DNA from: a virus
Direction: 5' to 3' (one strand)
DNA length: 64,000 bases
IMG/VR virus record: IMGVR_UViG_645058793_000001
Span: 1 to 64,000 of that record
The position numbers and the translations under genes are program-made. The notes beneath the pieces are model-generated. The model had not been told where the DNA came from. It did not search any database and worked only from the letters and a program-made list of their open reading frames with translations. Each line of letters begins with the position of its first letter. Within the stretch, counting starts at the first letter, position 1. Positions 36,871 to 60,470 of the stretch are shown piece by piece.

Positions 36871-37668
36871 CTATATCAGCTCCTCCCATTTTGGAATAAT
36901 TGTCATTGTTGTATCACCGGTTGTGGTCCATGAAATGGTATTATTACCGGGCAATAGTTTTAGGAACGGTAGACTGTTGATACGAAACATTGAGTTGTCA
37001 TTTGTTTTCGTACTGATTGCTGTCATAGCTTTCGAGTCCAAAATAATACCACCATCTAAATTAAGTAGCTTCATTGTTTGGCTACCAATTGTAATGGTGG
37101 TATCTCCGCTTCCGGTTAATTTAATTGTTGGATATGCATCTGACTTCGTTGGGTTATTGATTGTGCCACCGCTTTTAATTGTTGTCTCCGTTAAACCAGA
37201 AAGTAAGAACCGCTTGGGTTCAAAACGGAATTGTACATCAGCGGTTGCAGCATATTGATTAATACGCGTGAATGTATATTCAGCACTAATGTAAACGTTA
37301 TAGTAAACATCAGGTTCGGCTGACCACATGAAGGCACCACCAGCGTAAGTCCCTTTGAACCACTCGTCAACTTCCTGAATTGCCGTTTCAATTGAACGGT
37401 TACCAGCAGTGACAATAGCAATAGGTAGTGTACGCACGACTGTTTTATAACGATTGTTTGAAATAGCAACCGACCCATCACGACCAGGTACCTCAACGTA
37501 TGTAATATCTGTTTCTGGTGAGACAAACGTAAAACTGTGTTGCAGATAAACACCAAAGTCTGACGAGTATTTACCGCCATAAAAAAAGTGTCGATCGTCG
37601 CTCGGTAATGCTTTGAATTTTGTTTGTGCATCTAGCAACGTCTGAGTTGCTGGTTTATAAAACTTCAT
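36871..37668 (-). CDS. distal tail protein (Dit)
   Basis: 265 aa; position between tape measure and Tal. Confidence 0.6.
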   Translation of the reverse strand: MKFYKPATQTLLDAQTKFKALPSDDRHFFYGGKYSSDFGVYLQHSFTFVSPETDITYVEVPGRDGSVAISNNRYKTVVRTLPIAIVTAGNRSIETAIQEVDEWFKGTYAGGAFMWSAEPDVYYNVYISAEYTFTRINQYAATADVQFRFEPKRFLLSGLTETTIKSGGTINNPTKSDAYPTIKLTGSGDTTITIGSQTMKLLNLDGGIILDSKAMTAISTKTNDNSMFRINSLPFLKLLPGNNTISWTTTGDTTMTIIPKWEELI

Positions 37669-37708: not shown

Positions 37709-40700
37709 CTACCCCATAGAACCACGTTGTTCCTTCATCGCTTCGAAAGCTAAACGCTCACTCATTGATTTAGCTGATTCTACGTATGTGTTAGACCTAT
37801 TGTTTTTATTAATCTGATTACCCTCGGTCAATAAGGAAACCATTTTTTGTAGTACCTGAATAACGTCTTGGTTATCGACATTAACTACGGTAGATTGTGG
37901 AGCAGGCTGTTGTTGCTGTGTGCGGAACGTGTCGTTAGCATTAACGATACCCTGCATCTGTCCAGCAACTGGAACCGTACCACCAGTCGCAAACTTAGGA
38001 ATCATACTTGGATCAATTGTCCGTCCAGTATCAGCAGAGAATGCAGACATTGACGACCAAACTTTCGTTCCAGCAGGCAATGGTGTTAGCGTCCAATCAG
38101 CAGGTGAAACGCCTAAGCGTCCTTCAGGTGTTAGGTATGGCTCATTCTTACCACCGTCACCTAGCCAATAGTTACCGTCAGTTGATGCGCCAGAAGTTCC
38201 AGTAGCGAAACCTTCTTTAATCTTTTTATAGATACTTTTGAAAACAGAAGTAATGGTAACTGTTTTACCGTGAACGCTATCAATGCTTGATTTAGCAGAA
38301 CTGACACCACCGTGAGTTTGATTACTTGCATGTAAGTTGGCAGTTTTACCTTGCAAGGAATTGATTGTTCTTTGAGCGCTACCCTTACCTTGTCCAGCTT
38401 GGTTGCTTGCTTGCAATGGTGAGGTTTTACCATGTAAACTATCAATCGTTCCTTGAGCAGATGCTTTACCGGGACCAGCTTGATTAGAACCCTTCAATGG
38501 TGAAGTCTTTCCGTGTAAACTATCTATGGTACCTTGAGCGCCCATAACACCAGGGTGAGTTCTATTCAAAGCCTCAAGTTTTTTCTGAGCAGCTTTCTGC
38601 TTGTTCCAACTTTCGATTTGTTTTCTGGCGGTTGTTGACTTACCACTAGCTAAGTCGTTAGCAATCAACTTCTTCTGAGATGGTGTCAGCTTATTCCAAT
38701 CTTTAAGCTTAATACCAGCACTAGAAAGTAACTTACTTGCACTATCTTTAGCAGTAAGGTTTTTGGCATTTGGCTTAGCAGCATTCCACAAAGCAATTTT
38801 TTGCTTAGCTTTATCAGTTTTTCCAGAAGCCATATCGTTAACAAGAATCTTTTGTTGTTTGGGAGTTAACTTATTCCAATTTTTAACAGAACCAACAGCT
38901 AATTGTGCTTCCTTAGTAGCCATATTTTTTGCAATAATTTTTGCTTGCTTAGGACTAATCTTGTTCCAATCAGCGACTTGTTTCTTAGCACCCTTAACGT
39001 TTCCGCTAGCTAAGTCGTCCGCTAACAACTTTTTCTTTCGTGGTGATAATTTATTATATTGATCAACGCTGACGCCAGCAGTCTTAAGCAACTTAGTAGC
39101 CGCATCAGTTGCTTCAAGTTTTTTCTTACCTGGCTTTAAAGTATTCCAAACGTTAATTCGATTTTTAGCACTATCAACTTTTCCGCTAGATAAATCTTCG
39201 GCAACTAATCGCTTTTCTTTTGGCGACAGTTTATTCCAGTCTTGGAATTTAATACCAGCTTGTGCCAACACCTTACTTGCAGCATCGTTAGCTTTAAGAT
39301 TCTTTGAATCAGCTTTAGATGCGTTCCACAAAGCTACCTTTGCTTTAGCTCGATCGGTGTTTCCTGATGCAAGGTCTTTAACTATCAGGTTCTTAATCTT
39401 AGGATCCATCTTGTCCCATTCGCCTGATTTTTCAAGTGGTTTTATAAGTGCTTCACTAGCTTTATCTTCTGCAATAAAAGCCTTTTCTTCAACACTTAAA
39501 CCATTCCACGAATCCAAACCTTCCATCGCATTTAACAGAACAGCATGACCTTCGTCGTTCTTAAGCATTATTTCTTTTTGTTCTGGTGTCGTATGATTCC
39601 AATTCTCAACATCTTCAACACCTTGCTTGCTTGCAATGTGGAATTGCTTTTGGAATTGTCCCCAGTCGATACCAGCTGCTTGAACAGATGCTTTCAGATT
39701 ATCGTAAGATTTACCATAGTCCTTAACGGATTGTGCTTGGTTGTCCCAATCAATTTTCTTAAGTTGGGTATTGAAATCGCTAACTAACGGCTTGATTGAT
39801 TCAGCATTCTGTTCAAAAAAGTCTTTCCACGCTAAACGTTTTCCTTCTTTACCGCCGATAGCTTTAGCTTGTTCCTTAGCTTGTGTGATTGCATCACCAA
39901 GACTTTGTCCCAGAACTTCACCGTAGTTTTTCATCGATGTACGCAATTGCTTTAATGACAAATCAGATAAGTCAGCGTTATTAATCATGTCTGTCAAAGC
40001 ATCACGTTGTGACTGACTAAATTTTGTGTTGGTTTGAATCTGCTCAGCTAAAATGGCTTTGCGATCCTCTTCCATTTTTGCCATTTCATCTTTGGTTAAT
40101 GAACGATGCTCGTTAGCAGCCTTAGTCAAAATGTCAGTAACTTCTTGCTGTGCATTTGTGACCGTTTGCTTTGAATATTCGTATGATTGATTCTTTTCGT
40201 TCAATGTATCAATCTCTGATTTAGCAGCGGATTTCATTGCAGCCGATGCCGATGGATCGTCTAAGATAGCTTGCAACTTTTTGATACGTGCAGACGTTTT
40301 ATCAATATCACCTTGTACTTGTGAATTAACGACTTGCGCCCATGAACCAAATGCACCAGCAGCGTCTTTAATATTTTCTGGATTGAGCTTAACATTAGAT
40401 AACTTACGCAAAGATATTTCAGCAACATCAGCTTCTTTCTGCATCTTGCTAAATTCTTTAGCTTGCGATTGAGTCATTTTAATGTTGTACTTACCAGTTT
40501 CCTGACGTTCTTTTTCAGCCTTCTTAACCTTGTCCACATGGTCTTTATAAACTTTCCAACCAACGACACCTACCGCAGCGGCAGCAGCTAATCCAAGCAT
40601 TACTGGAACACCAACGCCCATAGTACCGAATAATGCAGCTCCAGCAGTTTTAAGTAACCCAGCTGACTTACCAGCAGTCGCTACTTCCTTGCCAGCTTTA

Positions 40701-43700
40701 CCAGCTGCACCACCAAATTTACCAAGTCCAGCCGCACCAACACCAGTTTGTGCGGCAATTTCTGCAAACGTTAATCCTTTGTTTGCTTCACTTAATAGCT
40801 TAGCCTCTTTACCGGCTTTGCCGGCAGCCGAACCGTAACGTCCGAAGCCCGTAACCGCACCAGCTAACTCAGCCATAGTGGTTACATCTTTAATTCGACC
40901 GGCAATCTTAATGAAACCACTGACGGTTTTAGTAGCAATACCAACACTAGAAACCAATGGTCCAAACACAAGCGCCATCGCCCCTAGTCCAGCACTAGCC
41001 AATGCGGTATTAGCAATTAATGATTTTGTGCCATCAGACAAACCACTAAACCAGTGTATTAATCGTTCAATACCCTGCATCGTTTTGTTGATTGTCGGCA
41101 TCATTGAATCGCCCAGCTGCATGACCACATCATCTAATGTTGCTTTGAATATCTTCATTTGTGACGCAGGGTCTTTCATATTCGCATGAGCCAATTTCTG
41201 AATATATGACCCAGCTTCAGTTGCGTTTGCCCCAACGTCTTTCATTGTTTCACTTAATTGCTTAGTGTTATTCAAAAAGATACCAGCAGCTTGCATACCT
41301 GTTTGGCCAAAGACGGCCTTTAAAATACCCAACTGTTGGTCTTGTGGCAAATCTTTAATAGCACCATTTAATTGTCCAAATATATCAGGCAACGAACGCA
41401 ACTTTGTCTTACCAGTTTTTGCATCAACCTCAGTCAACTTAACACCGAATGAATCCAGTGTATCTTTAGCTGTTGCAGTTGGCGCAGATAGAGATGTCAA
41501 AACTTTACGGAAACCAGTTCCTGCTTTTTCCGCTTCGACACCGTTGTTGCTAAGGACTCCGATTGCACTAGCTGTATCACTAACCGAATAACCAACCGTA
41601 TGAGCTGCTTGTGATACATACGTCATAGCAACTCCCATACCGTGGAAATCGGTAGCCGTAGTATCGGCAGCGTATGCTAACGTATTAGCAACCATACGTG
41701 TGTTTTTCATCTGAGTTGAAGCATCAGTAGAACGTAGGCCAAATCCTTCAAGGGTTGATGTAGTTGTTCTCAACGTATCACTCAAAGAATCTCCAGATGC
41801 CTTTGAAGCGTACATGATGTCTTTTAATGAAGCTAACGCTGACTCACCATCGTAACCACGACGGATCAATTCCTCATAACCCTTAGCAATCGTCTTTTGT
41901 GAATCACCATATTCAAGTGATAACTTACGTCCTTCAACACGCATTTTATTAACCGTGCGTTGTGATTCAGCAGCACCCTCACCAGACGTTTTCAACAAGT
42001 TGTAATTAATGTTGTAAGCGTGAGATAATTCAGCTGCATCTTTGGCGCCTTTAGCAAACGCTCCACCAATCATAGTAGTGTTCATAACGGCATTCATACC
42101 AAAACTCGTCATGGTGCGTCCGGTGTTTCTTAATGAGTTACCAATCTTATTACTACCATCAACGACACGGGCAAATCCTGTGGACATACCCGGTAACGTT
42201 TTAGCAGTCTTGGTAATCTCACCAGCCATACTTGCCATATTAGCTTTGGTGTTAGCAATAGCCACACGTTGTTCACTAATTGCAGATGCATTCTGACGCT
42301 CAGCACTGGTTAATTCATTTAACTTATTAACCTGAGCAGTTAACGTACTACCAAGAATTTTATATTGCTGCGATAGTCCAATGACATGCTCACGATTAGC
42401 TAGCAACGTTTGATTGTTTGCTCGGAACACCGCTTCACTCTCGCGTGTCTTAGCTTGCATCAGTGCTAATTCACGATCCAATGATTTAACTGATTCCTCA
42501 GCTTGCTTAACACTGTTATCGTCAATGCGAATTTTATTTTGTGCTGAATCTTCTTTTAATTGTTGTAAATCTCGACGTAACTCTTTAGCTTTCGTAGACG
42601 ACGAACCAAACTCTTGACTAGCAGACGCCAATGCCGTTTTCAATTGCTTTTGTTTGTCAGCAAGTAACGTCGTTTCAGTTTTTAATCCTGTTTCCTCGGT
42701 ACGTAAAGCATTAGCTTCGTCACCAACCATACGAAAAGTTTCAGCAGAAGCTTTAACACTAGCACGCAATTGTTTAAGATTTTCGTTAACTAATTCTAGA
42801 CCAGTCGACTTCAATGCATAAGCAGCTTGTTTTTCTTCTGATATTAATGAAGTGTACGAAGATTTTAAATCTCGAATAACAGCAATTTGCTCACGATACT
42901 CGTCTGAATTGCGTCCAAATTGATGACCTACTTCTTTCAGAACTGATTGCTCGGCTTTAATCTGTTGTTCGTAAGCTTTAACTGATTCGCCGAGCATTCG
43001 ATAGTTCTTAACTTGGGCACCCTCTTTATCACCCTGTAACTCTAATGCCTGAATATCAGCTCGACGAGTAGCTTCAAGTTCTTTAGTACTAGATGCCAGT
43101 TCTTTTGTGCCAGCTGTCTCTTGTGCTAATGCGACCTTAGCTTCTTTGTATTCACGAGTTAAGTTAGCTTCTTGTAAAGCTAAGTCTTTAACTTGCAACT
43201 CTTGTTTTTCGATTGCATCAGTGTCTTTATCTTTGGCAGATTTCAATTCATTAAGTACAGATTTTTCTGCTAATAATTTTTCTGATAGCTTACTATGTTG
43301 AGCAGTTAAACCAGCAACATTCTTAGCAGCAGCTGTCATTGACTGACCTTGTGCATCAGCTAATTTAATATCAGCTTGCCGAGTTTTATCTAGCAACTCA
43401 TACTCGTGCGAAAGTTTTTGTACTTGATTCTGAGCAGCAATATATCCACTGTTGGTTTTCTTAATCTGCTCATTGGTCTGAGACATTTTCTCGTTAGTGG
43501 TGGCTAACTTACTGGCCAACTTGTCATACTCTGGATTAGTACGTTCGACTGTTTCAGCTGTCTTAGCTAACTGAGCTTGTAGCTTAGCCATTTTTTCAGT
43601 AGCACCTTGACCACCTTGTTTAGCTAATGCCTCAATCTTTTCTTTTAACTGATCATAAACAGGATTAGCTTCACGAGTAACTCTCGCGGTAGCTTCCATT

Positions 43701-43927
43701 TGCCTTGCTAAGTCTTTTGACTCCTGTTCATACAGCTTACTTGTTCGTTGTAATCCTTCAAGTTTTGCCTGATAAGCTTTAACCCAGTTGCCCGAACTCG
43801 ATAATTCACGGAACTGTGTTTTCCACAATGCCGTATTTGTTTTTATCTCTCTTGCTAGGTTCGCCCATTTTCTTACGAAACCAGAATCATCAAGCAACGC
43901 ACGGACAACAATATCGTTTCCTGCCAT
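37709..43927 (-). CDS. tail tape measure protein (2072 aa)
   Basis: Very long coiled-coil protein with a Gly-rich hydrophobic segment, about ten tandem ~40-aa repeats (WNKLSPKEKRL...) and GTIDSLHGKTSPL repeats; position downstream of G/GT. Confidence 0.85.
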   Translation of the reverse strand: MAGNDIVVRALLDDSGFVRKWANLAREIKTNTALWKTQFRELSSSGNWVKAYQAKLEGLQRTSKLYEQESKDLARQMEATARVTREANPVYDQLKEKIEALAKQGGQGATEKMAKLQAQLAKTAETVERTNPEYDKLASKLATTNEKMSQTNEQIKKTNSGYIAAQNQVQKLSHEYELLDKTRQADIKLADAQGQSMTAAAKNVAGLTAQHSKLSEKLLAEKSVLNELKSAKDKDTDAIEKQELQVKDLALQEANLTREYKEAKVALAQETAGTKELASSTKELEATRRADIQALELQGDKEGAQVKNYRMLGESVKAYEQQIKAEQSVLKEVGHQFGRNSDEYREQIAVIRDLKSSYTSLISEEKQAAYALKSTGLELVNENLKQLRASVKASAETFRMVGDEANALRTEETGLKTETTLLADKQKQLKTALASASQEFGSSSTKAKELRRDLQQLKEDSAQNKIRIDDNSVKQAEESVKSLDRELALMQAKTRESEAVFRANNQTLLANREHVIGLSQQYKILGSTLTAQVNKLNELTSAERQNASAISEQRVAIANTKANMASMAGEITKTAKTLPGMSTGFARVVDGSNKIGNSLRNTGRTMTSFGMNAVMNTTMIGGAFAKGAKDAAELSHAYNINYNLLKTSGEGAAESQRTVNKMRVEGRKLSLEYGDSQKTIAKGYEELIRRGYDGESALASLKDIMYASKASGDSLSDTLRTTTSTLEGFGLRSTDASTQMKNTRMVANTLAYAADTTATDFHGMGVAMTYVSQAAHTVGYSVSDTASAIGVLSNNGVEAEKAGTGFRKVLTSLSAPTATAKDTLDSFGVKLTEVDAKTGKTKLRSLPDIFGQLNGAIKDLPQDQQLGILKAVFGQTGMQAAGIFLNNTKQLSETMKDVGANATEAGSYIQKLAHANMKDPASQMKIFKATLDDVVMQLGDSMMPTINKTMQGIERLIHWFSGLSDGTKSLIANTALASAGLGAMALVFGPLVSSVGIATKTVSGFIKIAGRIKDVTTMAELAGAVTGFGRYGSAAGKAGKEAKLLSEANKGLTFAEIAAQTGVGAAGLGKFGGAAGKAGKEVATAGKSAGLLKTAGAALFGTMGVGVPVMLGLAAAAAVGVVGWKVYKDHVDKVKKAEKERQETGKYNIKMTQSQAKEFSKMQKEADVAEISLRKLSNVKLNPENIKDAAGAFGSWAQVVNSQVQGDIDKTSARIKKLQAILDDPSASAAMKSAAKSEIDTLNEKNQSYEYSKQTVTNAQQEVTDILTKAANEHRSLTKDEMAKMEEDRKAILAEQIQTNTKFSQSQRDALTDMINNADLSDLSLKQLRTSMKNYGEVLGQSLGDAITQAKEQAKAIGGKEGKRLAWKDFFEQNAESIKPLVSDFNTQLKKIDWDNQAQSVKDYGKSYDNLKASVQAAGIDWGQFQKQFHIASKQGVEDVENWNHTTPEQKEIMLKNDEGHAVLLNAMEGLDSWNGLSVEEKAFIAEDKASEALIKPLEKSGEWDKMDPKIKNLIVKDLASGNTDRAKAKVALWNASKADSKNLKANDAASKVLAQAGIKFQDWNKLSPKEKRLVAEDLSSGKVDSAKNRINVWNTLKPGKKKLEATDAATKLLKTAGVSVDQYNKLSPRKKKLLADDLASGNVKGAKKQVADWNKISPKQAKIIAKNMATKEAQLAVGSVKNWNKLTPKQQKILVNDMASGKTDKAKQKIALWNAAKPNAKNLTAKDSASKLLSSAGIKLKDWNKLTPSQKKLIANDLASGKSTTARKQIESWNKQKAAQKKLEALNRTHPGVMGAQGTIDSLHGKTSPLKGSNQAGPGKASAQGTIDSLHGKTSPLQASNQAGQGKGSAQRTINSLQGKTANLHASNQTHGGVSSAKSSIDSVHGKTVTITSVFKSIYKKIKEGFATGTSGASTDGNYWLGDGGKNEPYLTPEGRLGVSPADWTLTPLPAGTKVWSSMSAFSADTGRTIDPSMIPKFATGGTVPVAGQMQGIVNANDTFRTQQQQPAPQSTVVNVDNQDVIQVLQKMVSLLTEGNQINKNNRSNTYVESAKSMSERLAFEAMKEQRGSMG

Positions 43928-44498
43928 TATCCAATTCCTTCCTTGGCTGCCTGATTAGAACTAACATAATCAAACAAGCTCATCGTTTGTTCGCCTTGCG
44001 AGTCGCCTGCCTGCTCAGAACCATTTTCAACAAATCGGATAACATCGTCTAAGTCTTGATTCCACGCAGTGTTGACGTCCCACTGATAATTTTGAATCAA
44101 TGAAGTGACGAACCCATCTACTTGTTTGATTGCGTCATCGATTCCAATATTTTTGACGCTTCATCTGATTCAGACAAAGTATCTTCACGAGTTGATTCCC
44201 ATAGGTACACGTCATTGTACAAGTCTGAGATTGCCTTTGGATCAAACTCCTCAAAGTTATCAGCTGGTGTCTCAAACAGTTCTGCTAAGTAATCAATTCG
44301 CAATTCTAGCAATTTAATTTCAGTGTCCAATAGAGCAACACCGTCAAATTCAATATCTTCCTCTAACAACTCGTTGAACTTCTGTCGTTCCTTTTCGAGT
44401 TTTTGTTCTGCAACCAATGCCTTGCGGAATGACCCAACTGTACGTGTCAACGTCTTAACTGAACCATCTACAAACTTAAATGTTTTCGTTACTGCCAT
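43927..44498 (-). CDS. tail assembly chaperone GT fusion via programmed -1 frameshift
   Basis: The -1 frame is open from the A-run TCAAAAATA (about 44150) through the whole 190-nt gap and stops at TAA overlapping the tape-measure ATG (ggaTAATGg). Confidence 0.45.
44118..44498 (-). CDS. tail assembly chaperone (gpG-like)
   Basis: 126-aa acidic protein immediately upstream of the tape measure. Confidence 0.6.
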   Translation of the reverse strand: MAVTKTFKFVDGSVKTLTRTVGSFRKALVAEQKLEKERQKFNELLEEDIEFDGVALLDTEIKLLELRIDYLAELFETPADNFEEFDPKAISDLYNDVYLWESTREDTLSESDEASKILESMTQSNK

Positions 44499-44660
44499 GA
44501 TTTAATTACCTCTTTTATTTAAAATATGTATGCCAGAGTTATCGCACCCTGACTGAGCGACAATGCCTTTTTATTTTAGGAGGCAAGGTCTTATATGTAT
44601 GGTAGCAATTAAGCTACCGTAATTTTTGCAGTGGTCGTACCTACTATGGTGTTACTCACC

Positions 44661-45242
44661 TTAGGCGTTACTCGCTGTACCGAAAGCCAATGCTTCGAAC
44701 TTTGCACGCGTAACTTCATTTTCACCAACCACACCTTCTGCATAAGTAAATCCTTGCTTGTTGCTAACAGCATGGAATACCAATGAGTCGGTTGTGTTTT
44801 GAACTGAGGCGTTGTTTGTTTGTGGATTAACATCACCACGAGTGAATGTTCCACGGAACAATGCCATCAATGCTTCGTTGTTGTCTTTGTCATGTGACAC
44901 AGCCATGATGGTTGCGTATGCAGGATTAGAATCCTTACCGTGCAACCATGCACCTGAGGCCTCGTCTTGTTGGTAACCTAGCAAACGTGCAGTCAAGTCA
45001 CCTGGAATATCCAAGGCGTTGAATGTTGCTTGCACATCACCAGTACCAGCTGACAATGTTAGGAAAGCACCGTCACCAGCATAAAGAGTAGTTGGTGACT
45101 TTGAAAGGTTTTGCAAGTTAAATCCAGTTGGACCACCATTTGAATTGTCCAGCGTATAGATGTCAGCAGCTGCAATAGTTGGGTCAGTTGAAGACTTGTG
45201 AATACCAATCTTCACTTCTGACAAACCTTGTAGTAATGTCAT
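44661..45242 (-). CDS. major tail protein
   Basis: 193 aa, composition and position typical of a TP901-1-like major tail protein. Confidence 0.7.
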   Translation of the reverse strand: MTLLQGLSEVKIGIHKSSTDPTIAAADIYTLDNSNGGPTGFNLQNLSKSPTTLYAGDGAFLTLSAGTGDVQATFNALDIPGDLTARLLGYQQDEASGAWLHGKDSNPAYATIMAVSHDKDNNEALMALFRGTFTRGDVNPQTNNASVQNTTDSLVFHAVSNKQGFTYAEGVVGENEVTRAKFEALAFGTASNA

Positions 45243-45257
45243 GTTTATTTTCTCCTT

Positions 45258-45665
45258 CTATATAAAAGAGCTGCCATCAGACAGCCCTTCGTAACGCAAT
45301 GTTATTTTTAATTGACTTGTTTCCTCGTCTAAATCGTGTCCTAAGTTATCGATTGGAAACCAATGATTTTCTTCCATTAATCGATTAAGTTGCCATTCAA
45401 ACTTATCCACATCAACTCCTTTTTTGTACCAGACCTGAATCTGAAACCGTTGTCTAAGTTTTCTGGCATGGTCGCCAGCATACTCATCGGGTGTGTTTCT
45501 GATTTCATCTAATAGGAGCAATGTGAAGTCATCTCGTTTAACAAACTCACTAGGAATGCGATACGAAAAAACGCCCCGTGTATCTAAGTCACCAACCAGA
45601 ACTTTATCTAGTGGCAAGTCAGACGCACGGAGCAAGTCTTTTAATTTATTTATAATCATTATCAA
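45258..45665 (-). CDS. tail completion/terminator protein
   Basis: Position between neck proteins and major tail. Confidence 0.4.
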   Translation of the reverse strand: MIMIINKLKDLLRASDLPLDKVLVGDLDTRGVFSYRIPSEFVKRDDFTLLLLDEIRNTPDEYAGDHARKLRQRFQIQVWYKKGVDVDKFEWQLNRLMEENHWFPIDNLGHDLDEETSQLKITLRYEGLSDGSSFI

Positions 45666-46261
45666 AGTCCTTTGGCGTGTAACTTAGCGATGAATGCTTT
45701 ACGCATATCCTCAACCGCAGCCGCACGTTTTTCTTCGACACCTTGATCAACGAAATGAAGACCTTGAAAGCTTCGACTACCTGAATCAACGGTTTTTAAC
45801 TTGTAGCGATAATTACGTCCAGTACTATTAACAAAGTGTGGACGATTATCAACCACGAAGTGTCCCTCATCAACAAATTTCCAGTAGTAACCTTCGGACG
45901 GGAACTCGACATCAGTTGCAGCCATATTTTCAGGGCTATGCAATTTAATAACGTTTTCCAACCCAAGAAAGTGTTGTTGACGATTAGTGAAGGTTGTACC
46001 GTCTGGTGTAGTATGAGGCTTAGAACCACCAGTATTATCAGTCTTACTCTTAAGTGAATCCTGAATTCCTAATTGTGCTTGCCTTGCACCTTGTTCAGTA
46101 ATCTGTTGTTTCTCTGCAATTGATAGATTAATCTGGTCAGCAATTTTATTTAACCCTGATAGGTCAATGTCTAAATCCATTTCCATATTAAGTACCTCCT
46201 GCATTGCGGTATGTACGATTAACACCATTACCACGTTGTAATGTGAGCAAGTCGTAACCAC
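45662..46261 (-). CDS. HK97 gp10-like neck protein
   Basis: Position and size. Confidence 0.45.
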   Translation of the reverse strand: MVTTCSHYNVVMVLIVHTAMQEVLNMEMDLDIDLSGLNKIADQINLSIAEKQQITEQGARQAQLGIQDSLKSKTDNTGGSKPHTTPDGTTFTNRQQHFLGLENVIKLHSPENMAATDVEFPSEGYYWKFVDEGHFVVDNRPHFVNSTGRNYRYKLKTVDSGSRSFQGLHFVDQGVEEKRAAAVEDMRKAFIAKLHAKGL

Positions 46262-46571
46262 GTGGATCTCTTAAGTCTCCCCATGGTGATACACGAACCA
46301 CGACATACTCAATATCATCGATATGCGCTAACATATTGATGTGAACTTTGCCCTGATCTTTAATTGCGTACACCTGATCTTCTTGCTGGTTTGGGCCTTC
46401 GTTTCCAACTTGTTCGTGATAAAGAATGCGGTATGGTGAAGTCCATAAAAAGAAATCTTTCACGAATTCTTGTCGTACAATACCGTCTTGGTCTTCGTGG
46501 GATTGATAATGACCGAATGTTATTTTTTGATTGAATCTAGGTAACTCAACGTACTTCTGTAATCGTGCCAT
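46188..46571 (-). CDS. head-tail joining (head closure) protein
   Basis: Position and size. Confidence 0.4.
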   Translation of the reverse strand: MARLQKYVELPRFNQKITFGHYQSHEDQDGIVRQEFVKDFFLWTSPYRILYHEQVGNEGPNQQEDQVYAIKDQGKVHINMLAHIDDIEYVVVRVSPWGDLRDPRGYDLLTLQRGNGVNRTYRNAGGT

Positions 46572-46881
46572 TGTTTTGCTCCCACACCATGTAATCAGCT
46601 TTCATTTCTAAGATTAAATCATTGTACCCAGTCGGTGTTTTATACAAGTTAACATCAGTCGTAGCAGAACGATTTAAGTAGTCATTTGCAGTTAGTTTCA
46701 AAATCGCTAACACATAACTTGGATTGTCCACAAAGAAACTTTCTTGTGTGCCAACAGCATGACGTACGGTTCTGTCAGCTGATTGAATCATGGTTTTTAA
46801 AATATCATCTTCATCGTTGAATACGATACGTAAATTTTGTTTTACTAATTTCAAGATATCGGAGTATACTTCATCAGTCAT
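46546..46881 (-). CDS. gp6-like head-tail connector protein
   Basis: Position and size. Confidence 0.45.
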   Translation of the reverse strand: MTDEVYSDILKLVKQNLRIVFNDEDDILKTMIQSADRTVRHAVGTQESFFVDNPSYVLAILKLTANDYLNRSATTDVNLYKTPTGYNDLILEMKADYMVWEQNNGTITEVR

Positions 46882-46925: not shown

Positions 46926-47837
46926 TTAAATATGCTTACTGGCGGTAATTGCCTGTACGTATTTGTACGAGGCTTTCTGTTTATTAACAAACGATAAATC
47001 ATCATCGAACGGTTCATGATCAATATAGTTACCTTTAAAAAAAAGATCGTTCATATCACTTATGACACCAGCATTATGAAATAATTTATGTTCATAATAT
47101 TTTTCAATATCATCGACTGCCCAACTAAATGACAGTTCGTCGGTGACCGTTGGAACAATATTGAATGCAGCTAAAGTCCAAACTTGCGCATACATCTCGG
47201 CCGTCCACGATTGGATATACCCTCCTGTTGATTGGCCAATGTCTGTTTTGTTTGGAATTGATTGAAAGTAGTTATAGATGTCGATACAGTTATGATAAAC
47301 CTGAAACCAGTAATCTGATTTTGGTTTATCAATAAACCATTGTGCACCACCCATACCTCTATCGATTTCTTTTAATTGATTAGTTGTTACACCAACAATA
47401 TCATTCATCTTTGCAACTATTTCGTCACCACATGGACGTGTACTAACGTATGTATAATTTGTATATCCTAGCGTATCGGCACAATACCATCTATTAGTTG
47501 ATAAATTATCAGGAGTAACAGGCAACTCTCGAAAGATAATATCACTATCTATATATAGGTAGGAACTTGTTTCTCGTTGACTATCCTCTGATAAAAATTG
47601 CCACCAAAGATATGGTCGAATACTAGGAATATACTTTTTATCCACACGATTATCAGTGTACGTATGTGTCTCAACACCAAACTTGCTACGGAAGTAATCA
47701 GCATAATCGTTACTATCACTAGCAAACAAAAGCACTACGTCATTTAATGGAAAATGTAAGTTATCTAAATTATTTAGAAGGACTTTCAATTCCCACTTAA
47801 AGCGCAATACTGTTGGTTGTGCTAATAGTATTTTCAT
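46926..47837 (-). CDS. GT8-family (LgtC-like) glycosyltransferase
   Basis: N-terminal VVLLFASDSNDYADYF matches the GT8 IVFAADDNYAAYL box; DXD motif in YLYIDSDIIF matches LgtC LYLDIDVLV. Confidence 0.55.
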   Translation of the reverse strand: MKILLAQPTVLRFKWELKVLLNNLDNLHFPLNDVVLLFASDSNDYADYFRSKFGVETHTYTDNRVDKKYIPSIRPYLWWQFLSEDSQRETSSYLYIDSDIIFRELPVTPDNLSTNRWYCADTLGYTNYTYVSTRPCGDEIVAKMNDIVGVTTNQLKEIDRGMGGAQWFIDKPKSDYWFQVYHNCIDIYNYFQSIPNKTDIGQSTGGYIQSWTAEMYAQVWTLAAFNIVPTVTDELSFSWAVDDIEKYYEHKLFHNAGVISDMNDLFFKGNYIDHEPFDDDLSFVNKQKASYKYVQAITASKHI

Positions 47838-48190
47838 TAAGCCTTAGGAGCCTCCGTGGTTGTAGTTGTGGTTGGGGCTACCGTAGTCGTCGTTGTCGTA
47901 GTAGGCTTTGACGTAGTAGTGGTAGTTGTTGTCGGAGCCACTGTTGTGGTTGTCGTTGTTGTAGTTGGTTTAGCTGTCGTTGTAGTTGTTGTCGGCTTTG
48001 GAGTGGTTGTCGTCGTTGTTGTAGGCTCTGCCTGTGTCTTAAACGACAATTCAGTCTTCGCTGATTGGCCAGCATAGGCAACCGCATAGTTGTCATATTG
48101 TGTCGCTGGCTTTAATCCAGTAATTTCGATAGGTGACTCAACGCCAGCTTGGTCGACCTTACCGTCTTTGTATAAATCGAATTTAGCCAT
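47837..48190 (-). CDS. Ig-like head decoration-type protein with long poly-threonine tail
   Basis: N-terminal Ig/FN3-like domain of about 50 aa followed by (T7-8 X P/K) repeats. Confidence 0.5.
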   Translation of the reverse strand: MAKFDLYKDGKVDQAGVESPIEITGLKPATQYDNYAVAYAGQSAKTELSFKTQAEPTTTTTTTPKPTTTTTTAKPTTTTTTTTVAPTTTTTTTSKPTTTTTTTVAPTTTTTTEAPKA

Positions 48191-48236: not shown

Positions 48237-49424
48237 TTACTCGCCTTTGGCGCTACTCGCTGCTACGTCAACAATACGGAATGCAGATGGGCGCTTGATA
48301 GCTGCGTCGTACCATAATGTGTATTGAGCGTAAGTAACACCAGTTTCTGGCTTACGGTATTGTTCAATCAATGAACCTTGTGGATCGTAGTTTTGGTGGT
48401 ACATTGCGAAGTTACCAACGACTGGCTTTACAGCGTATGACGTAAAGTAAACTGGCACACCAATAACTGATTCAGGTTGTGCAGCATATAGTGTTGCAGA
48501 ACCGTTAGCTAATACCTTGATAATCTTGTTGTAATCAGCACGCTTCATAAATACAGCTGCTTGATCAACATCAGCATCTGACAAGTCAGCCAAAGCATCA
48601 AGAATAGCAGTGAACAAATCGTCACCAGCAATGTGCTTGATGCCATTTGATGCGTCATACAATGACATGTGTTCCTCACCAACAACTGGCGTTGAGGCAA
48701 AGGCACGTGCTAATTCAAGCATTGAAGCTCCGTTAGCTAACTTTTGTTGTGCATATTGTAGCAATGCCAATGACGTACCAGCTACCAACGTATCAGTAAA
48801 TCCGATACGAACCTTTGACTCGAAACGTCCGAAAGTAATTTGCTTTCCTGACACTTCGGCTTCGTTAGCTTCGGCACCTTCACCAATAGTCTTGAATGCG
48901 TCACCGAACTCAACGTCCAAAGCTGGAATACGCAAGTTGACCATTGATGATGTTGAGATAACACCACGTAATGGGTTTGGCATATCAGGCTCTGAGATTA
49001 CTTCGTTTGACAAAGTAATTGGTAGGAAGTTGTCACCAACAACCGGACCATCTTCACCGTTAACTGATACGCCAGCAGCTTGCTTAAATCCGTTTAAGTC
49101 AATTGATTGACCTGACTTGATTACGCCACGTAGACGTTCTGCAAATGCATTAACATCTTTTTCAGCTGGTGTATCAGTAGCCTTCTTCTTCTTTGGATCC
49201 TCTGCATCAGCAGCAGCGGCTTCATCTTCTGCTTTCTTTGCTTCGTTATATTGCTCACGCATACCTTCGTAACGTTGCTTAGAATCAGCAGCAATTTTTT
49301 GCTTTTCAGAAATTTCTTCTGACGTAGCCTTAGGATTCAATAAAACTTCTTGGTACTTTTCGTTGTCAGCCTTAGCGACTTCACCTAGGTTTTGTACCGC
49401 ACCACGCATTTGATATAAATTCAT
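48237..49424 (-). CDS. major capsid protein (HK97 fold) with N-terminal scaffolding/delta domain
   Basis: 395 aa; N-terminal charged coiled coil; position after the prohead protease. Confidence 0.8.
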   Translation of the reverse strand: MNLYQMRGAVQNLGEVAKADNEKYQEVLLNPKATSEEISEKQKIAADSKQRYEGMREQYNEAKKAEDEAAAADAEDPKKKKATDTPAEKDVNAFAERLRGVIKSGQSIDLNGFKQAAGVSVNGEDGPVVGDNFLPITLSNEVISEPDMPNPLRGVISTSSMVNLRIPALDVEFGDAFKTIGEGAEANEAEVSGKQITFGRFESKVRIGFTDTLVAGTSLALLQYAQQKLANGASMLELARAFASTPVVGEEHMSLYDASNGIKHIAGDDLFTAILDALADLSDADVDQAAVFMKRADYNKIIKVLANGSATLYAAQPESVIGVPVYFTSYAVKPVVGNFAMYHQNYDPQGSLIEQYRKPETGVTYAQYTLWYDAAIKRPSAFRIVDVAASSAKGE

Positions 49425-50197
49425 TACTTGATCTCCTTTAGATAAGCTTCGGCACTATCGATATAATCTTGAATTGCCTCAGCACGTTGTTTGCGTTCTT
49501 CCATGCTCATTCCCTCGGATTGTTCCTTGTCAGGTTTTTCTTGAGCATTCAAAAACTCCGGCACGTGTTCATACATGTCGGAGTATCGTTGTGATATTGA
49601 TTGCATTACAGCTGGACGTTCATTCTTTTGATCAGCCCAACCAGCAGTGATTGCTTCATCAGCAGTTAGCCATGTTTCATTATCCATGACTGACTTGATT
49701 GCTTCTTTGTCGATACCAGTTTTCTCGTGGTAAATATTCACAGAGCTTTCACGAATTTGGTCTAACGTATCGGCCATCTCGCGTAACTCACTAGCATTAC
49801 CAACTGCCATTGTGAATGGGTTGTGAATCATCAACATTGAACCAGTGTCCATCGTCAATGTATCACCAGCCATTGCAATAACCGAAGCAATTGAAGCAGC
49901 TAATCCCTCAACCGTTACATTAACCGTTGCAGGATTTTTCTTTAGCATATTGTAAATGGCAATTCCGTCGAACACGGAACCACCGGGTGAATTGATGGAC
50001 ATGTTGATTGTTTTAACTGGCCCAAGTTCTTTTAATGAATCTCGGAAATCAGTTGCTGAGACATCGCTATCCCATAACTTCTCAGAAACAATCTCACCAT
50101 CAATATGAATTTCAGCAACTTCGTTATCCGTCGCTTTCATCTGAAAGTACATCGTTGTCTTCTGTCTCCTTTCCAGTTCGTTCTTCCATCGTGGCAT
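49424..50197 (-). CDS. prohead maturation protease (ClpP/S14 family); real start probably an internal Met
   Basis: ClpP-like core (INSPGGSVFDGIAIYN ... IASVIAMAGD); the 5' end overlaps the portal gene. Confidence 0.7.
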   Translation of the reverse strand: MPRWKNELERRQKTTMYFQMKATDNEVAEIHIDGEIVSEKLWDSDVSATDFRDSLKELGPVKTINMSINSPGGSVFDGIAIYNMLKKNPATVNVTVEGLAASIASVIAMAGDTLTMDTGSMLMIHNPFTMAVGNASELREMADTLDQIRESSVNIYHEKTGIDKEAIKSVMDNETWLTADEAITAGWADQKNERPAVMQSISQRYSDMYEHVPEFLNAQEKPDKEQSEGMSMEERKQRAEAIQDYIDSAEAYLKEIK

Positions 50198-51365
50198 CAG
50201 TTGGATATAAGTCTCCTGATATCCATAACTTGTTAGCGCCAGCTTGGTTGTTGATTGGAATACCTTCTAATTCTTGAATGTATTCTGGTGAAGCAATACC
50301 ATTACGAATTAACATCTGGTAGTATGCGGTACGTGCAGCAGTATTTCCACGAAGCAACACGTTGGTATCGAACTTAAAATAAAAACCGGCTGCCTTTTGG
50401 CTGTCGGTTAATAGTTTCATATTCAATTCTGATTCATACTGTCGAACAATTGGTAAGATAGTTCCTTCAACGAACGTGATGAAATGTTCTTCGGAATCAC
50501 GATAACCAGAACCCTGATCACCAGAGTTCAAGAATATCAGTGGGACGTTGAACACGTTGGCCACACGTCTGATATAAGTATCATCATTACGTGCAACATC
50601 AGCAGTCGCAATCTTACGGTCAATCGTATCAACTTCCATGCCCGGTTCGCTGAACAGCACACCAGAGTTATCTTTGATAAATGCTTGAACGTTTAATGCA
50701 ACAGCTTTCTTACGAGTGTCATCAATGTTCTTATCAAACTTAATGGTAAATCCATCACGCTTAGACATTTCATTCAGCGAGAATTTATTGAAGGCCTCGT
50801 TATAATCTGCGGAACCTTGTAATACATCAATCGGACTAATTCCAACAACACGTGACGAACCAGTCAAATGTTTCAAGTGAATCATCTGATACGCTGGTAC
50901 ATACATCGCGCCATTTTGTCCTTGAACTTTATACCACACGGTAGAGTCGTCCGAATTAATAAATGGCATTACTAACCCATGGTCTAAATTCCAAAGTGCT
51001 TTCGGTTGTAGGTACTCATCGTATTGGATAAACACATAGGCGTTGCCAAATTCATTCCGGTCAACTTCCGCTTTGTGCCAAACATCATAAGACGAAAAAA
51101 CCGGATTAGCTTGTTGAGAAACTAACCGATCAATTGAATCTGTTCTAATGTGTTTACGATCGGCATCATACAAGTCGACATTCATAGAAGCGATGATACC
51201 AGCAAGTCGAGTAATGACAGAAAAGATTACTGGGTCTTTCTGTAACTCGACCTTACCAGTTCCGAAAAGGTTATTCGTCATGATGAGAGGAGCAGAAGAT
51301 GTACCGCTTGATTTTGGCGACGCGTTCAAACGTTCCCAAACATTATGTAGGATTCCCACAGGCAC
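50124..51365 (-). CDS. portal protein
   Basis: 413 aa; position between TerL and prohead protease. Confidence 0.8.
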   Translation of the reverse strand: MPVGILHNVWERLNASPKSSGTSSAPLIMTNNLFGTGKVELQKDPVIFSVITRLAGIIASMNVDLYDADRKHIRTDSIDRLVSQQANPVFSSYDVWHKAEVDRNEFGNAYVFIQYDEYLQPKALWNLDHGLVMPFINSDDSTVWYKVQGQNGAMYVPAYQMIHLKHLTGSSRVVGISPIDVLQGSADYNEAFNKFSLNEMSKRDGFTIKFDKNIDDTRKKAVALNVQAFIKDNSGVLFSEPGMEVDTIDRKIATADVARNDDTYIRRVANVFNVPLIFLNSGDQGSGYRDSEEHFITFVEGTILPIVRQYESELNMKLLTDSQKAAGFYFKFDTNVLLRGNTAARTAYYQMLIRNGIASPEYIQELEGIPINNQAGANKLWISGDLYPTDATMEERTGKETEDNDVLSDESDG

Positions 51366-51922: not shown

Positions 51923-53818
51923 TTAAGCGTCTAAATTCATCAGTTCTTCAAACGACATATACGTCAAATTTGGTTCACTATTATTTATATTTGATACCAA
52001 CATTGGAGCAATTGTCACGTGGCAATTTAATGCTGCGGCAAATCCATCTATCTTTCGATAGCGACTAGTTTTCGTCGGCATCCAATTATTGTTACGGTCA
52101 GTTACTAATGCAACGTTTGATAGATACCATTTAAATAATCTACTATTGTTAAATACTACCTTGTGGTCAAGCATTAGTTCTTTGAAATTTTGTAATGGGC
52201 CACCTAGTGTGGTAAACCCTTGTCGAGTAACCTCAGTGTGGAAACCTTGGTTCTCTAACATCGCATTCAAAGTAATTGCTTTAGCTGGGTCATAGTTAAT
52301 TTGTCTGATTGTATACTGCTTATCCATTTCGATTAACCAATCATAGACAGCACCATGGTCAACATGTTCGCCTGGCAATACGGTCATTTCATCTGCTTCT
52401 ATCCATTCATTGAAACGTTCCTTATATTGTTCCTCACGATCATAACGTGCTTGTGGAATCCAAGTATGCTGCTTAATAAATATCCGACCATCTGGTAACG
52501 GGAATTCTAATGCAGCTGCCGTAAAATCTTCCGTATCAGAAAGGTCAAATCCGGCAACTGGGTGAATACCAGCTAATTCTGATTCATCTATTTCATCGTT
52601 ATTAGCTAAAATGGTTTCCGCATCTAGCAAACTTTGTTCACCACTCTCACTGAACAGATTGAATTGCTTAGTTATCCAATCACGACGTTGCTGTGGTGTA
52701 CGCATATCTTTTTTATAATTAGATAGTAAACTAAGTCCGTCCATCATTGGTAAGTTTGGATTAGCCTTGATCCACATTTCTGGGTTGTCAGCTTCCTTAA
52801 CATCATCTATCTTAGCTAAGTAGTAAAATGAACGTTCATTTAAATTCTCGTCGTACTGTTCCAAAGTTTCTTTACCGCTTCGAAAGAAATCGGTCATTGG
52901 TCCGTCTAATACTGTACCAGCTGTACTGATATAAACAGTTAATGGTTGCATACGTTGTCCCATTGAACGACGCATAACCTCAATTAACTCATAATCTTTA
53001 TACTCGTGGATTTCATCAAACACGGCAAAGCTAGTATTGAAACCATCTTTACTATGTTTCTCAGCAGACAATGATAATATTGTGGAGTGTGTTCTTTGAT
53101 GCTCCACCTTGTGCATTGACTTAGTTGTCTTAAATCTTTTCTTTAGGAATTCCGATGCGTCAATCATCGCAATAGTTTCATCAACCAGTCGACCAGCTTG
53201 CGCTTTCATGTTGGCTAGTGCATAGACTTCGGCACCGTTTTCCCCGTCAAAACCTGCCATATATATAGCAAGTCCTGACTGGATTGTCGTTTTTCCGTTT
53301 TTACGTCCCACGAATATCAAACCTTCGTTGAATCTTCGCAGCCCTGTTTCCTTATCAACCCAGCCAAATATATTTCCTAACACGAAATGTTGCCATGGTT
53401 GTAGAACCAATCGTTTAATCGTACCTTTTGACGGCTTAGTGTTTTCCTCGATGAACCTGATTGGTCGCCATGCCTTTTCTTCATCGAACACCCATGGATA
53501 ATCTGGATCGTTCTTACTTCGTTCCAAATCATTTAGATGTCGTTGTGCTGCCATAATATTTTCTTTCGATGCTGGCACCGTGCCATCAACTAATAATTGA
53601 GCATAGTATGTGGTAAGTAGTGTAGCAGAAGGTTCTGTTAGGTAATACCAGCCGTGATAATACTCGACTAACTCTTTCCACCACTTCTTTTGACCACTGA
53701 AATCCATCTTTAATGGATTAGTCTCAGTCCCACTCACTCTTTGTATCTTCCTTCTTTTCAGAACCAAATTGCTTGTTGGCCAGCGATGCACGGCTGCTTG
53801 GTGTAAAGCCAATTTCAT
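51923..53818 (-). CDS. terL: terminase large subunit
   Basis: 631 aa; ATPase Walker A (VGRKNGKTT); C-terminal nuclease region. Confidence 0.85.
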   Translation of the reverse strand: MKLALHQAAVHRWPTSNLVLKRRKIQRVSGTETNPLKMDFSGQKKWWKELVEYYHGWYYLTEPSATLLTTYYAQLLVDGTVPASKENIMAAQRHLNDLERSKNDPDYPWVFDEEKAWRPIRFIEENTKPSKGTIKRLVLQPWQHFVLGNIFGWVDKETGLRRFNEGLIFVGRKNGKTTIQSGLAIYMAGFDGENGAEVYALANMKAQAGRLVDETIAMIDASEFLKKRFKTTKSMHKVEHQRTHSTILSLSAEKHSKDGFNTSFAVFDEIHEYKDYELIEVMRRSMGQRMQPLTVYISTAGTVLDGPMTDFFRSGKETLEQYDENLNERSFYYLAKIDDVKEADNPEMWIKANPNLPMMDGLSLLSNYKKDMRTPQQRRDWITKQFNLFSESGEQSLLDAETILANNDEIDESELAGIHPVAGFDLSDTEDFTAAALEFPLPDGRIFIKQHTWIPQARYDREEQYKERFNEWIEADEMTVLPGEHVDHGAVYDWLIEMDKQYTIRQINYDPAKAITLNAMLENQGFHTEVTRQGFTTLGGPLQNFKELMLDHKVVFNNSRLFKWYLSNVALVTDRNNNWMPTKTSRYRKIDGFAAALNCHVTIAPMLVSNINNSEPNLTYMSFEELMNLDA

Positions 53819-54209
53819 TTCCTAATTTAACTAACTGTTGTGTTGTACGACGCCACTCGTTAATAGTTGGGTTATTTCTTACCACACCTTTTTCGTCAAC
53901 ATACGTCAATCCCATTGTGTCTATTTCAGCCCACAACTCATCGACCATTACGGCCGTTCGTGCGTAACTTGCAACTAATCTAACGTCTGCGTTGTGTAGT
54001 AGGGACATTTTCTTTAACATATTCTTTGTTTCATAGAACACATCACGCTCTTTTCCCTGCATATCATCAGGCGCAACAAACTTATCTGGTTGCACAACGT
54101 TCATTGCTTCCTCACGTTTCGTACGCCCTTCAATTTCTACTTTCGATTTTCTAAGTGCGTTTCCTTCCATAGTAATAACGTTGGCTGGCTTTGCTTTTCT
54201 TCCTGGCAT
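53724..54209 (-). CDS. terS: terminase small subunit (P27 family-like)
   Basis: 161 aa immediately upstream of TerL. Confidence 0.6.
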   Translation of the reverse strand: MPGRKAKPANVITMEGNALRKSKVEIEGRTKREEAMNVVQPDKFVAPDDMQGKERDVFYETKNMLKKMSLLHNADVRLVASYARTAVMVDELWAEIDTMGLTYVDEKGVVRNNPTINEWRRTTQQLVKLGNEIGFTPSSRASLANKQFGSEKKEDTKSEWD

Positions 54210-54212
54210 TAT

Positions 54213-54695
54213 TTACCCCACTTTCAATTGCTCGTTTGCTAAGACACTTGCTGCTGCGGCAATGATTGCACCTGCTAAATCATCAGCAAATGTGTTGATG
54301 TGTTCCTTATCTTGGTCTAATTCACCGATAATGCCACGCTTCATACGGTCTTCATATCCATAATTTGTTGTGGCAATCGTTCCATACAGACTAGCGATGC
54401 CGAATGCAAGGTGTTCGTCTACCCCAAACATTGGATCATCATTTGCAATCTTGCTGGCTAGTGACTGGTACTTGCTATCCACATGATTATTTTCGACTAG
54501 CTCATCAAGTAGCAACATTGTAAAAATGTAATCTTGGACGATTGGGTTGGCCATGACTTCGCCCACTGCCATGTACGCATCAGTTTGTACTAGCTCTGGA
54601 TTATGCGTGATTTGATTCTCATATACGATGTTAGCCAGACTTTCTGACGTGATTCCACGACTTTCCAACATCTTTTCTACCTTATATAACTCCAT
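54213..54695 (-). CDS. hypothetical protein (160 aa), first gene of the packaging operon
   Basis: ORF. Confidence 0.4.
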   Translation of the reverse strand: MELYKVEKMLESRGITSESLANIVYENQITHNPELVQTDAYMAVGEVMANPIVQDYIFTMLLLDELVENNHVDSKYQSLASKIANDDPMFGVDEHLAFGIASLYGTIATTNYGYEDRMKRGIIGELDQDKEHINTFADDLAGAIIAAAASVLANEQLKVG

Positions 54696-59939: not shown

Positions 59940-60470
59940 TTATACAATCTTCCCCTTGTAATCACGAGTTTCAATGCTGCGGAAATCAAATGTTTGTAAT
60001 TCGTCCAGCGAATTGACATAACTATCTGGTCCAATAGCCGTCATTAAGTTGATTGGATTAGCATTCCAGTCACCAACATAGTACGTTACCGTAGGTTTAC
60101 CAGTAGCTTTTGCATATCCTAATTCGTATGCAGTTCCGCTATCCTCATTGCCTGCTTCGAGTACACCTAGTGTGAAGTCTGAGTTTCGGATAGCGGTTTC
60201 GTCTGCGTTATACGTATTCACACCCCACTTGAAGTCAGGGTTGAAGTCGCCGTTCTCATCGTACACATTACCTTCCGACTGATTCAAAAGTGGCAAATGT
60301 ACGTATGCAACTGTTGGATTATTTAATAATGCTCGATACCCAGTGACTAACGTTTTAATCTGCACATCTGAAAACCAACCGGCCCCAAAATATCCGGTCT
60401 TTGCACCCGGTAACTTGTCATTTGGTGCTTGCGATTGAATCTCTAGTAATTGTTTAATTAGTTCGTCCAT
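59940..60470 (-). CDS. nucleoside 2-deoxyribosyltransferase (NDT family)
   Basis: YFGAGWFSD and SGTAYELGYA motifs characteristic of Lactobacillus NDT. Confidence 0.75.
   Translation of the reverse strand: MDELIKQLLEIQSQAPNDKLPGAKTGYFGAGWFSDVQIKTLVTGYRALLNNPTVAYVHLPLLNQSEGNVYDENGDFNPDFKWGVNTYNADETAIRNSDFTLGVLEAGNEDSGTAYELGYAKATGKPTVTYYVGDWNANPINLMTAIGPDSYVNSLDELQTFDFRSIETRDYKGKIV

Follow-up and report, generated by a model that had tools for sequence, protein, structure and literature searches.

A predicted GT-A glycosyltransferase encoded behind poly-threonine tails in phages of Bacillota

Why would a phage keep a gene for a putative sugar transferase among the genes for its head? The question is raised by IMG/VR virus record IMGVR_UViG_645058793_000001, of which we analyzed positions 1 to 64,000 (the window). 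Here, two minus-strand genes, one for a 117-amino-acid (aa) protein with a long poly-threonine (poly-Thr) tail (47837-48190) and one for a 303-aa protein (46926-47837), are flanked by the genes for the major capsid protein (48237-49424, minus strand; phrog_10, E 4e-33) and a gp6-like head-tail connector (46546-46881, minus strand; PF05135, E 1e-8; phrog_40). An earlier note on this DNA had taken the pair for a GT8 glycosyltransferase and its O-glycosylation acceptor. Both open reading frames (ORFs), the Thr tract and the two flanking genes are as that note described them; the poly-Thr gene, which it had placed upstream of the capsid gene, actually lies immediately downstream, all of these genes being on the minus strand. 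Transcription runs from the capsid gene through the 117-aa and 303-aa genes to the connector gene. The stop codon of the 117-aa gene and the start codon of the 303-aa gene share one base in the sequence GCT TAATG AAA (TAATG at 47835-47839, minus strand, as read from the sequence), and the minus strand shows no terminator-like site from the capsid gene to the connector gene. We consider it likely that the 303-aa protein is a metal-dependent GT-A glycosyltransferase dedicated to O-glycosylating the poly-Thr tails of virion proteins.

Fold and family of the 303-aa protein

Sequence comparison placed the 303-aa protein in PHROG 4417, a family with no assigned function (E 1.3e-110, with residues 1-300 aligned to profile positions 1-291 of 293). 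The Pfam match to Glyco_transf_8 (PF01501) expected by the earlier note was absent, as was any other Pfam family at E ≤ 1; there was no NCBIfam match, and searches of PDB sequences with phmmer and with a profile of 49 sequences gave nothing at E ≤ 10 except chance matches to haemagglutinin. Although the searches of Pfam, NCBIfam and PDB were thus empty, structure prediction supported the fold that the note had proposed. The AlphaFold model, computed from an alignment of 49 homologs (38-79% identical), has a mean pLDDT (predicted local distance difference test) of 95.8 and a pTM (predicted template modeling score) of 0.93. It adopts a GT-A Rossmann-like fold, the nearest solved structures of which are GT8 enzymes at 8-14% identity, glycogenin among them. 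Foldseek further matched the model to WbbM, UGGT, and the ABO and alpha-3-Gal transferases (E 1e-7 to 1e-5). The best matches among viral models (BFVD) were uncharacterized members of the same family, including Orf49 of LP65, followed by GT8-type enzymes of giant viruses and cyanophages; none of the 50 best was a mycobacteriophage protein.

The residues that are invariant in the 49 homologs include D97, D99, Q209, W211, E214, H254, G257 and K268, a pattern that one would expect of a metal-dependent GT-A enzyme. D97 and D99 belong to the DXD motif pointed out in the earlier note (YLYIDSDIIF, residues 93-102); the codons for D97-S98-D99 lie at 47541-47549 (minus strand), and the motif stands just after the fourth beta strand (92-95) of the model. 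The N-terminal GT8 box named in the same note fared less well. Its letters, VVLLFASDSNDYADYF, are present at residues 34-49, but they are doubtful as the homologous element, given that the order of elements puts them on the second strand and helix and that their D, N and Y are unconserved. The first strand of the family instead carries (A/C)QPxxxRFxWEL, in place of the AxDxNY box of GT8. Likewise, H254, G257 and K268 are invariant, but their spacing differs from the GT8 motif H-x-x-G-x-x-K-P-W, suggesting an 8-residue insertion relative to GT8. The 303-aa protein is GT8-like by fold and falls outside GT8 by sequence.

A HMMER search of 1.84 billion cluster representatives recovered 892 members at E ≤ 1e-3 and 770 at E ≤ 1e-10. 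By these counts the family is a closed set of about 900 clusters, which does not merge into the very large canonical GT8 set. Taken with the model, the 303-aa protein would represent a distinct, mostly phage-borne GT-A family that is structurally nearest to the retaining GT8/GT24 group. Of the 150 best-scoring family representatives, about 40% have lengths of 450-780 aa, and at least 35 of these long members share a second domain with a DXD motif of its own (FDTDVV); in P0164, this domain is above the threshold for Glyco_transf_7C. One other representative is fused to a radical-SAM/SPASM domain, and in others there are weak signs of fusion to methyltransferase or GT25-like regions. A second transferase domain in the same protein would fit a role in glycan building.

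Poly-Thr tails and their carriers

The tail of the 117-aa protein (residues 56-117; 47840-48025, minus strand) is the proposed O-glycosylation acceptor. It holds 41 Thr in 62 residues, arranged in blocks of six to eight that are split by PKP, AKP, VAP or SKP, and it is the sole poly-Thr tract in the six reading frames of the window. Because all four Thr codons are used (ACA 17, ACG 10, ACT 9 and ACC 5), the tract is selected as protein and is no DNA microsatellite; an origin as a DNA-repeat artefact was rejected on the grounds of these mixed codons and of conservation as protein. In a close relative from metagenome run SRR28489347, in which the transferase is 97% identical, the same protein (positions 2675-3001 of the locus) is 108 aa long instead of 117 because it is without one Thr block; repeat number thus varies among close relatives. 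A 73-aa poly-Val ORF on the plus strand (47856-48077) is merely the Thr codons read on the opposite strand and was rejected as a gene.

The 303-aa protein has homologs in 77 records of isolated phages (from Lactobacillus, Enterococcus, Staphylococcus, Lactococcus, Clostridium and others), all of them annotated as hypothetical, and at no fewer than 510 further loci in IMG/VR. A survey for pairs of transferase and poly-Thr genes, as suggested in the earlier note, found them almost throughout. Of 68 distinct upstream regions, taken from isolates and from IMG/VR, where closely related Lacticaseibacillus prophages dominate, 67 have a run of at least 5-6 Thr that ends no more than about 120 nucleotides (nt) before the start codon; the sole exception has an upstream sequence of only 35 nt. 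The adjacency argument is borne by two other sets, namely genome loci taken from one genome per species and divergent isolates. A strong tract lies within 250 nt, and mostly within 20 nt, at 42 of the 48 genome loci, and a T-rich C-terminus is also present, though weaker, at five of the remaining six. The opposite strand of these loci holds one tract in 318 kb, and 85 of 88 tracts form the very C-terminus of an open frame. Among divergent isolates (25-40% identity), the gene directly upstream encodes a T-rich tail in seven of seven.

The protein that carries the tail differs from phage to phage. It is the capsid protein in Lactococcus phage CHPC836 (...GAPTTTTTTQATTTTTSHA) and in casei-group prophages, and the tail tube in phiFL1A (major tail protein gp50, ...NGTTTTTSTTTTTTSSTTTTTTTQASSK), phiCTP1 (tail-tube-like gp18, ...EETTTTTNAPITTTTTTV) and Staphylococcus phage PT1-1, where the tail tube has 16 consecutive Thr. 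Small proteins are the carriers in the window, in iLp84 (a 126-aa protein resembling the 117-aa protein of the window), and in Bacchae and LP65. The latter two and 521B are myoviruses with homologs that are 39%, 25% and 27% identical, respectively, and all three have a T-rich-tailed protein upstream of the homolog, with the pair outside the head module. Many loci have two to four tailed structural genes, such as those for the capsid-like gp45 and the tail tube in phiFL1A. In LP65, the T/Q-tailed neighbor of the homolog, orf51, is annotated in the record as a structural protein on the basis of two-dimensional gels and mass spectrometry; proteomics papers on 521B/SAC12B and Dionysus do not decide whether virions contain the enzyme or the tailed proteins. 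The hosts of the module include halophilic Bacillaceae, Clostridium, Listeria and Staphylococcus.

Lenus and ATCC 8014-B2 provide an instructive comparison. In both phages, the N-terminal module of the 117-aa protein (residues 1-55; 48026-48190, minus strand) is encoded between the capsid and connector genes, in the same place as in the window, and the part that follows it is an FN3 domain (Pfam fn3, residues 75-145) and not poly-Thr. Neither an enzyme homolog (by tblastn and family profile) nor a poly-Thr tract is present in the complete genome of Lenus, which would serve as a natural negative control for the link between enzyme and tail. Because adjacency is kept while the carriers change, and because of the Lenus control, the enzyme gene seems to follow the tail and not any one carrier protein. 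Since the pairing recurs in hundreds of phages of Gram-positive bacteria, their particles are probably sugar-coated.

The N-terminal module is the presumed virion-binding part of the 117-aa protein and is conserved in Lactobacillus phages: tblastn matched it in 33 phage records, and a protein-collection search with a 56-aa query returned one fragment only. The Ig/FN3-like domain that the earlier note had seen in this protein was not borne out. Pfam gave no Ig, FN3 or Big match at E ≤ 1 and only a sub-threshold match to Mucin, and the fn3 match in Lenus and ATCC 8014-B2 is to a different, C-terminal domain outside the shared module. A single-sequence AlphaFold model left the N-terminal module at pLDDT < 50. 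In the same model (m9c8914af3e05), the Thr blocks form a beta-meander of six strands, with a local pLDDT that reaches 96. This meander is probably a repeat artefact; it also raises the possibility that unmodified poly-Thr may be prone to form beta aggregates. Proteins with the N-terminal module followed by poly-Thr or FN3 (PHROG 14018, to which the 117-aa protein belongs, and RefSeq entries such as NC_047924 (Bacchae gp069), NC_047760 and NC_048753) are labeled 'major tail protein', probably a misnomer because the siphovirus genomes that were checked (Lenus and ATCC 8014-B2) have separate tail-tube genes. The copy in LpeD is labeled 'glycoprotein', for which the record gives no basis. The simplest reading is that the 117-aa protein would be an adaptor that decorates the head, binding it and displaying either a folded domain or a Thr stalk.

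A further route to tailed subunits may be frameshifting. At five independent loci, the poly-Thr tract lies in the -1 frame after the stop codon of a long upstream ORF and has no start codon of its own: L004 4725-4885 (Enterococcus phage VPE25), L060 ~3578, L098 ~2906, L119 ~2853 and L125 ~2904. The upstream ORFs end in ...tcA AAG TAA, gcA AAG TAA, tcA AAA TAA or C CCA AAA GCG TAG. In VPE25, where its identity was checked, the upstream ORF encodes the capsid protein. The arrangement resembles programmed -1 frameshifting at the final sense codon, by which a fraction of the subunits would acquire a poly-Thr tail; the records annotate the -1-frame stretch as non-coding. In Arcanobacterium phage TPWB06 (L091 2720-2926), the tail-tube protein ends in a short poly-Thr run, as does a 215-aa ORF at L072 5864-5927, and at both loci a longer poly-Thr frame goes on in the +1 frame across the stop codon. 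This pattern could be a second type of frameshift or could stem from indel errors in low-complexity sequence.

Family members were also found, in a scan of genome contigs, on contigs of metagenome-assembled genomes assigned to Saccharimonadales, Woesearchaeota and Poseidonia (L139, L141 and L143). The Saccharimonadales copy keeps an upstream tail ending in ...STTTTT and the Woesearchaeota copy is without one. These copies could reflect the true host range or binning contamination.

A putative glycosylation module and its alternatives

The tie that the earlier note drew between a sugar transferase and the adjacent poly-Thr protein is strengthened by fold and adjacency, even though the PF01501 match, the N-terminal box, the Ig label and the gene order given with it all failed. 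Starting from the fold, the conserved catalytic-type residues, the near-universal adjacency to tails and the operon arrangement, we propose a plausible pathway. The enzyme would be made from the late structural operon right after its substrate, with translation of the two probably coupled. Still in the host cytoplasm, either ahead of assembly or in its course, it would draw on a host nucleotide sugar to glycosylate the Thr hydroxyls in the tail of the 117-aa protein, which would then bind the head via its N-terminal module and display a stalk that is glycosylated and mucin-like. Where related phages have tails fused to capsid or tail-tube subunits, or added by frameshifting, these would be served by the same enzyme family. 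We infer Thr as the acceptor, the O-linked product, the identity of the sugar and the presence of the 117-aa protein in the virion; the anomeric form of the sugar would presumably be that made by the nearest structures, which are retaining enzymes. The coat might promote solubility and prevent aggregation, shield the particle from proteases or immunity, or aid adhesion.

Several points weigh against this pathway. No sequence-level link from the 303-aa protein to any curated glycosyltransferase family was found. The location of the 117-aa protein in the virion is presumed from its gene position and from the parallel with Lenus and ATCC 8014-B2. The 68 upstream regions, with their many related prophages, are not independent, and the Woesearchaeota homolog (29% identical) has no Thr-rich neighbor, the only such case among the 48 genome loci. 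In the literature searched, with most subscription journals outside the search, there was no biochemical evidence for any member of the 303-aa family, and neither the family itself, poly-Thr tails nor virion glycosylation in Bacillota phages was described. Finally, in the pathways for serine-rich-repeat proteins, GT8 enzymes lengthen a glycan whose first sugar comes from another enzyme, so that direct transfer to Thr by the 303-aa enzyme is an assumption; a Pfam scan of 25 window ORFs, the smaller ones excepted, revealed no second glycosyltransferase.

This last consideration leads to an explanation in which the phage enzyme only elongates: a host O-glycosylation system would prime Thr, for example with GlcNAc, and the 303-aa protein would add the second sugar. 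GlyE, a GT8 enzyme, acts in this way on serine-rich-repeat adhesins, host systems of the GtfA/GtfB type exist in lactobacilli and streptococci, and a single transferase in the scanned ORFs is what one would expect. A priming system shared by hosts as diverse as halophilic Bacillaceae, Clostridium, Listeria and Staphylococcus is, however, unlikely. Furthermore, glycogenin, which matches the model equally well, glycosylates protein directly, and the many members fused to a second transferase domain suggest a self-sufficient initiator-plus-extender. We hold elongation alone to be unlikely. Very unlikely, in our view, is that the enzyme acts elsewhere, on host wall teichoic acid or cell-wall polysaccharide (masking receptors) or on phage DNA, with the poly-Thr neighbor incidental. 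Even in Bacchae, 521B and LP65, where the gene follows recombinase and sigma-factor genes and is not in the head module, as such a role might predict, the gene directly upstream has a T-rich tail. Prophages do use GT-A fold enzymes on host surface polymers (TarP and Gtr), and no acceptor can be read from the fold of the 303-aa protein; nevertheless, adjacency holds across differing carriers in about 48 host species, the enzyme is absent where FN3 replaces the tail, and the gene sits in a late operon with no lysogeny module nearby. As for DNA, the phage DNA glucosyltransferases known so far have a GT-B fold.

A role without catalysis was also weighed, in which the tails stay unmodified as flexible spacers or beta-forming elements and the 303-aa protein, though transferase-like in fold, acts as a chaperone or assembly factor. 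The beta-meander with its high local confidence, which may be a repeat artefact, would agree with such a role. However, catalysis seems to have been kept, to judge from the DXD motif and the His, Gln, Glu and Lys residues that are invariant at 38-79% identity and from the fusions to further transferase-like domains, and repeat number that varies in near-identical phages fits a brush better than a fixed fold. We give this possibility even less credence than an action elsewhere.

Returning to glycosylation of the tails, we lean, with less assurance than for the enzyme itself, toward a widespread two-part module in phages of Bacillota: a short poly-Thr tag on any exposed virion protein and a dedicated GT-A enzyme encoded behind it would together yield a mucin-like sugar coat. 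The tag would be supplied by fusion, by a small adaptor, or through -1 frameshifting at the stop codon of the capsid gene, which would set its dose. Such a module was found undescribed in the literature searched, and the enzyme family was previously unnamed. If the proposal is true, glycosylated particles would be common in phages that infect lactic acid bacteria, enterococci, staphylococci, listeriae, clostridia and bacilli, among which are phages used in therapy research and phages that spoil dairy fermentations. Some studied phages would then have been glycosylated unnoticed (among them Enterococcus VPE25 and phiFL1-2, Staphylococcus Sextaecvirus, Lactococcus CHPC836/P1046 and Lactobacillus LP65). 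A function would be assigned to a family of roughly 900 sequence clusters now labeled hypothetical, the recurrent poly-Thr ends of capsid and tail-tube proteins would be explained, and the 'major tail protein' mislabels could be corrected. The pair would also offer a compact enzyme-plus-tag system for attaching sugars to proteins inside bacteria. The proposed module can be tested directly with phages already in culture.

Known systems and the remainder of the window

The sole phage precedent in the literature searched, which includes only secondary accounts of the original work, is virion glycosylation in mycobacteriophages (Freeman et al. 2023, Cell Host Microbe, as relayed in PMC12894461, PMC13313380 and PMC12582341). 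Such glycosylation is documented so far for some actinobacteriophages only, where it alters antibody recognition, and phage-encoded transferases are considered to decorate the phages' own capsid and tail-tube subunits. Among relatives of the window, both kinds of subunit carry the tail (phiFL1A gp45 and gp50). A phage-encoded glycosyltransferase is recognizable here at the fold level only, and the counterpart of a Ser/Thr-rich terminal extension is found on capsid, tail-tube and small proteins; in the window, it is confined to the 117-aa protein, the capsid protein of this phage ending in ...VAASSAKGE without a poly-Thr tail. The mycobacteriophage glycans are reportedly on C-terminal extensions, and the system is said to occupy a separate operon with several transferases and methyltransferases. 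In contrast, a single small enzyme is encoded here directly beside its presumed substrate, the acceptor is a stereotyped poly-Thr repeat, the hosts are Bacillota and not Actinobacteria, and the system is known as a prediction only. The enzyme family also appears distinct, judging from the 50 best BFVD matches and not from a direct comparison.

Other comparisons are more distant. With GT8 enzymes (glycogenin, LgtC and GlyE; PF01501), the 303-aa family shares a His conserved late in the sequence and a DXD motif that follows strand four, and glycogenin and GlyE act on proteins. The family differs from GT8 in its low identity of 8-14%, in having no PF01501 or PDB profile match, in its first strand and in the closed set of about 900 clusters that it forms. 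The A64R protein of Chlorella virus PBCV-1 glycosylates the viral major capsid protein; unlike the window's enzyme, it belongs to a eukaryotic giant virus that uses no poly-Thr tag, and its structural similarity to the 303-aa protein is weaker. PBCV-1 glycans are attached at Asn in atypical sequons. Ig-like and FN3 domains are displayed on phage capsid and tail proteins, some by programmed frameshifting, as in Lactobacillus phage A2. Like these, the tails are accessory surface modules on structural proteins: the module of the window carries FN3 in Lenus and ATCC 8014-B2, and several relatives appear to add poly-Thr to the capsid by a -1 shift at A-AAG-stop. The difference is that a low-complexity Thr repeat and a dedicated enzyme gene take the place of a folded domain.

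The pair belongs to a siphovirus-type late operon that spans 37.7-54.2 kb, with all genes on the minus strand. In addition to the genes described above, it encodes the small terminase (53724-54209), large terminase (51923-53818), portal (50124-51365), ClpP-like protease (49424-50197), neck and tail-tube proteins (44118-46571) and a 2072-aa tape measure (37709-43927). The 17-kb structural region had no nucleotide match among isolated phages by megablast, and the capsid protein has a 37%-identical relative in L. fermentum phages. A PgpA-like phosphatidylglycerophosphatase gene (54213-54695) directly adjoins the small terminase gene. On the other side, the Dit-like tail gene (36871-37668) is directly followed by a 2324-aa ORF (29893-36867, minus strand) for what would be a very large protein of the distal tail or of host recognition.

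Elsewhere, the window is likewise of phage character and encodes a primase-helicase, helicases, thymidine and deoxynucleoside kinases, and an amidase endolysin with a zoocin-type targeting domain. A ParA/MinD-type partition ATPase (25517-26272, plus strand) is encoded on the strand opposite to nearly all other genes, which might point to a prophage state resembling a plasmid or to a partition function of some kind. Unusual auxiliary genes, in addition to that for the PgpA-like enzyme, encode an RNA ligase of the T4 Rnl2 type (3411-4358), a PnuC nicotinamide-mononucleotide transporter (14312-15016), an SPFH/Band-7 protein (17375-18223) and a nucleoside 2-deoxyribosyltransferase (59940-60470).

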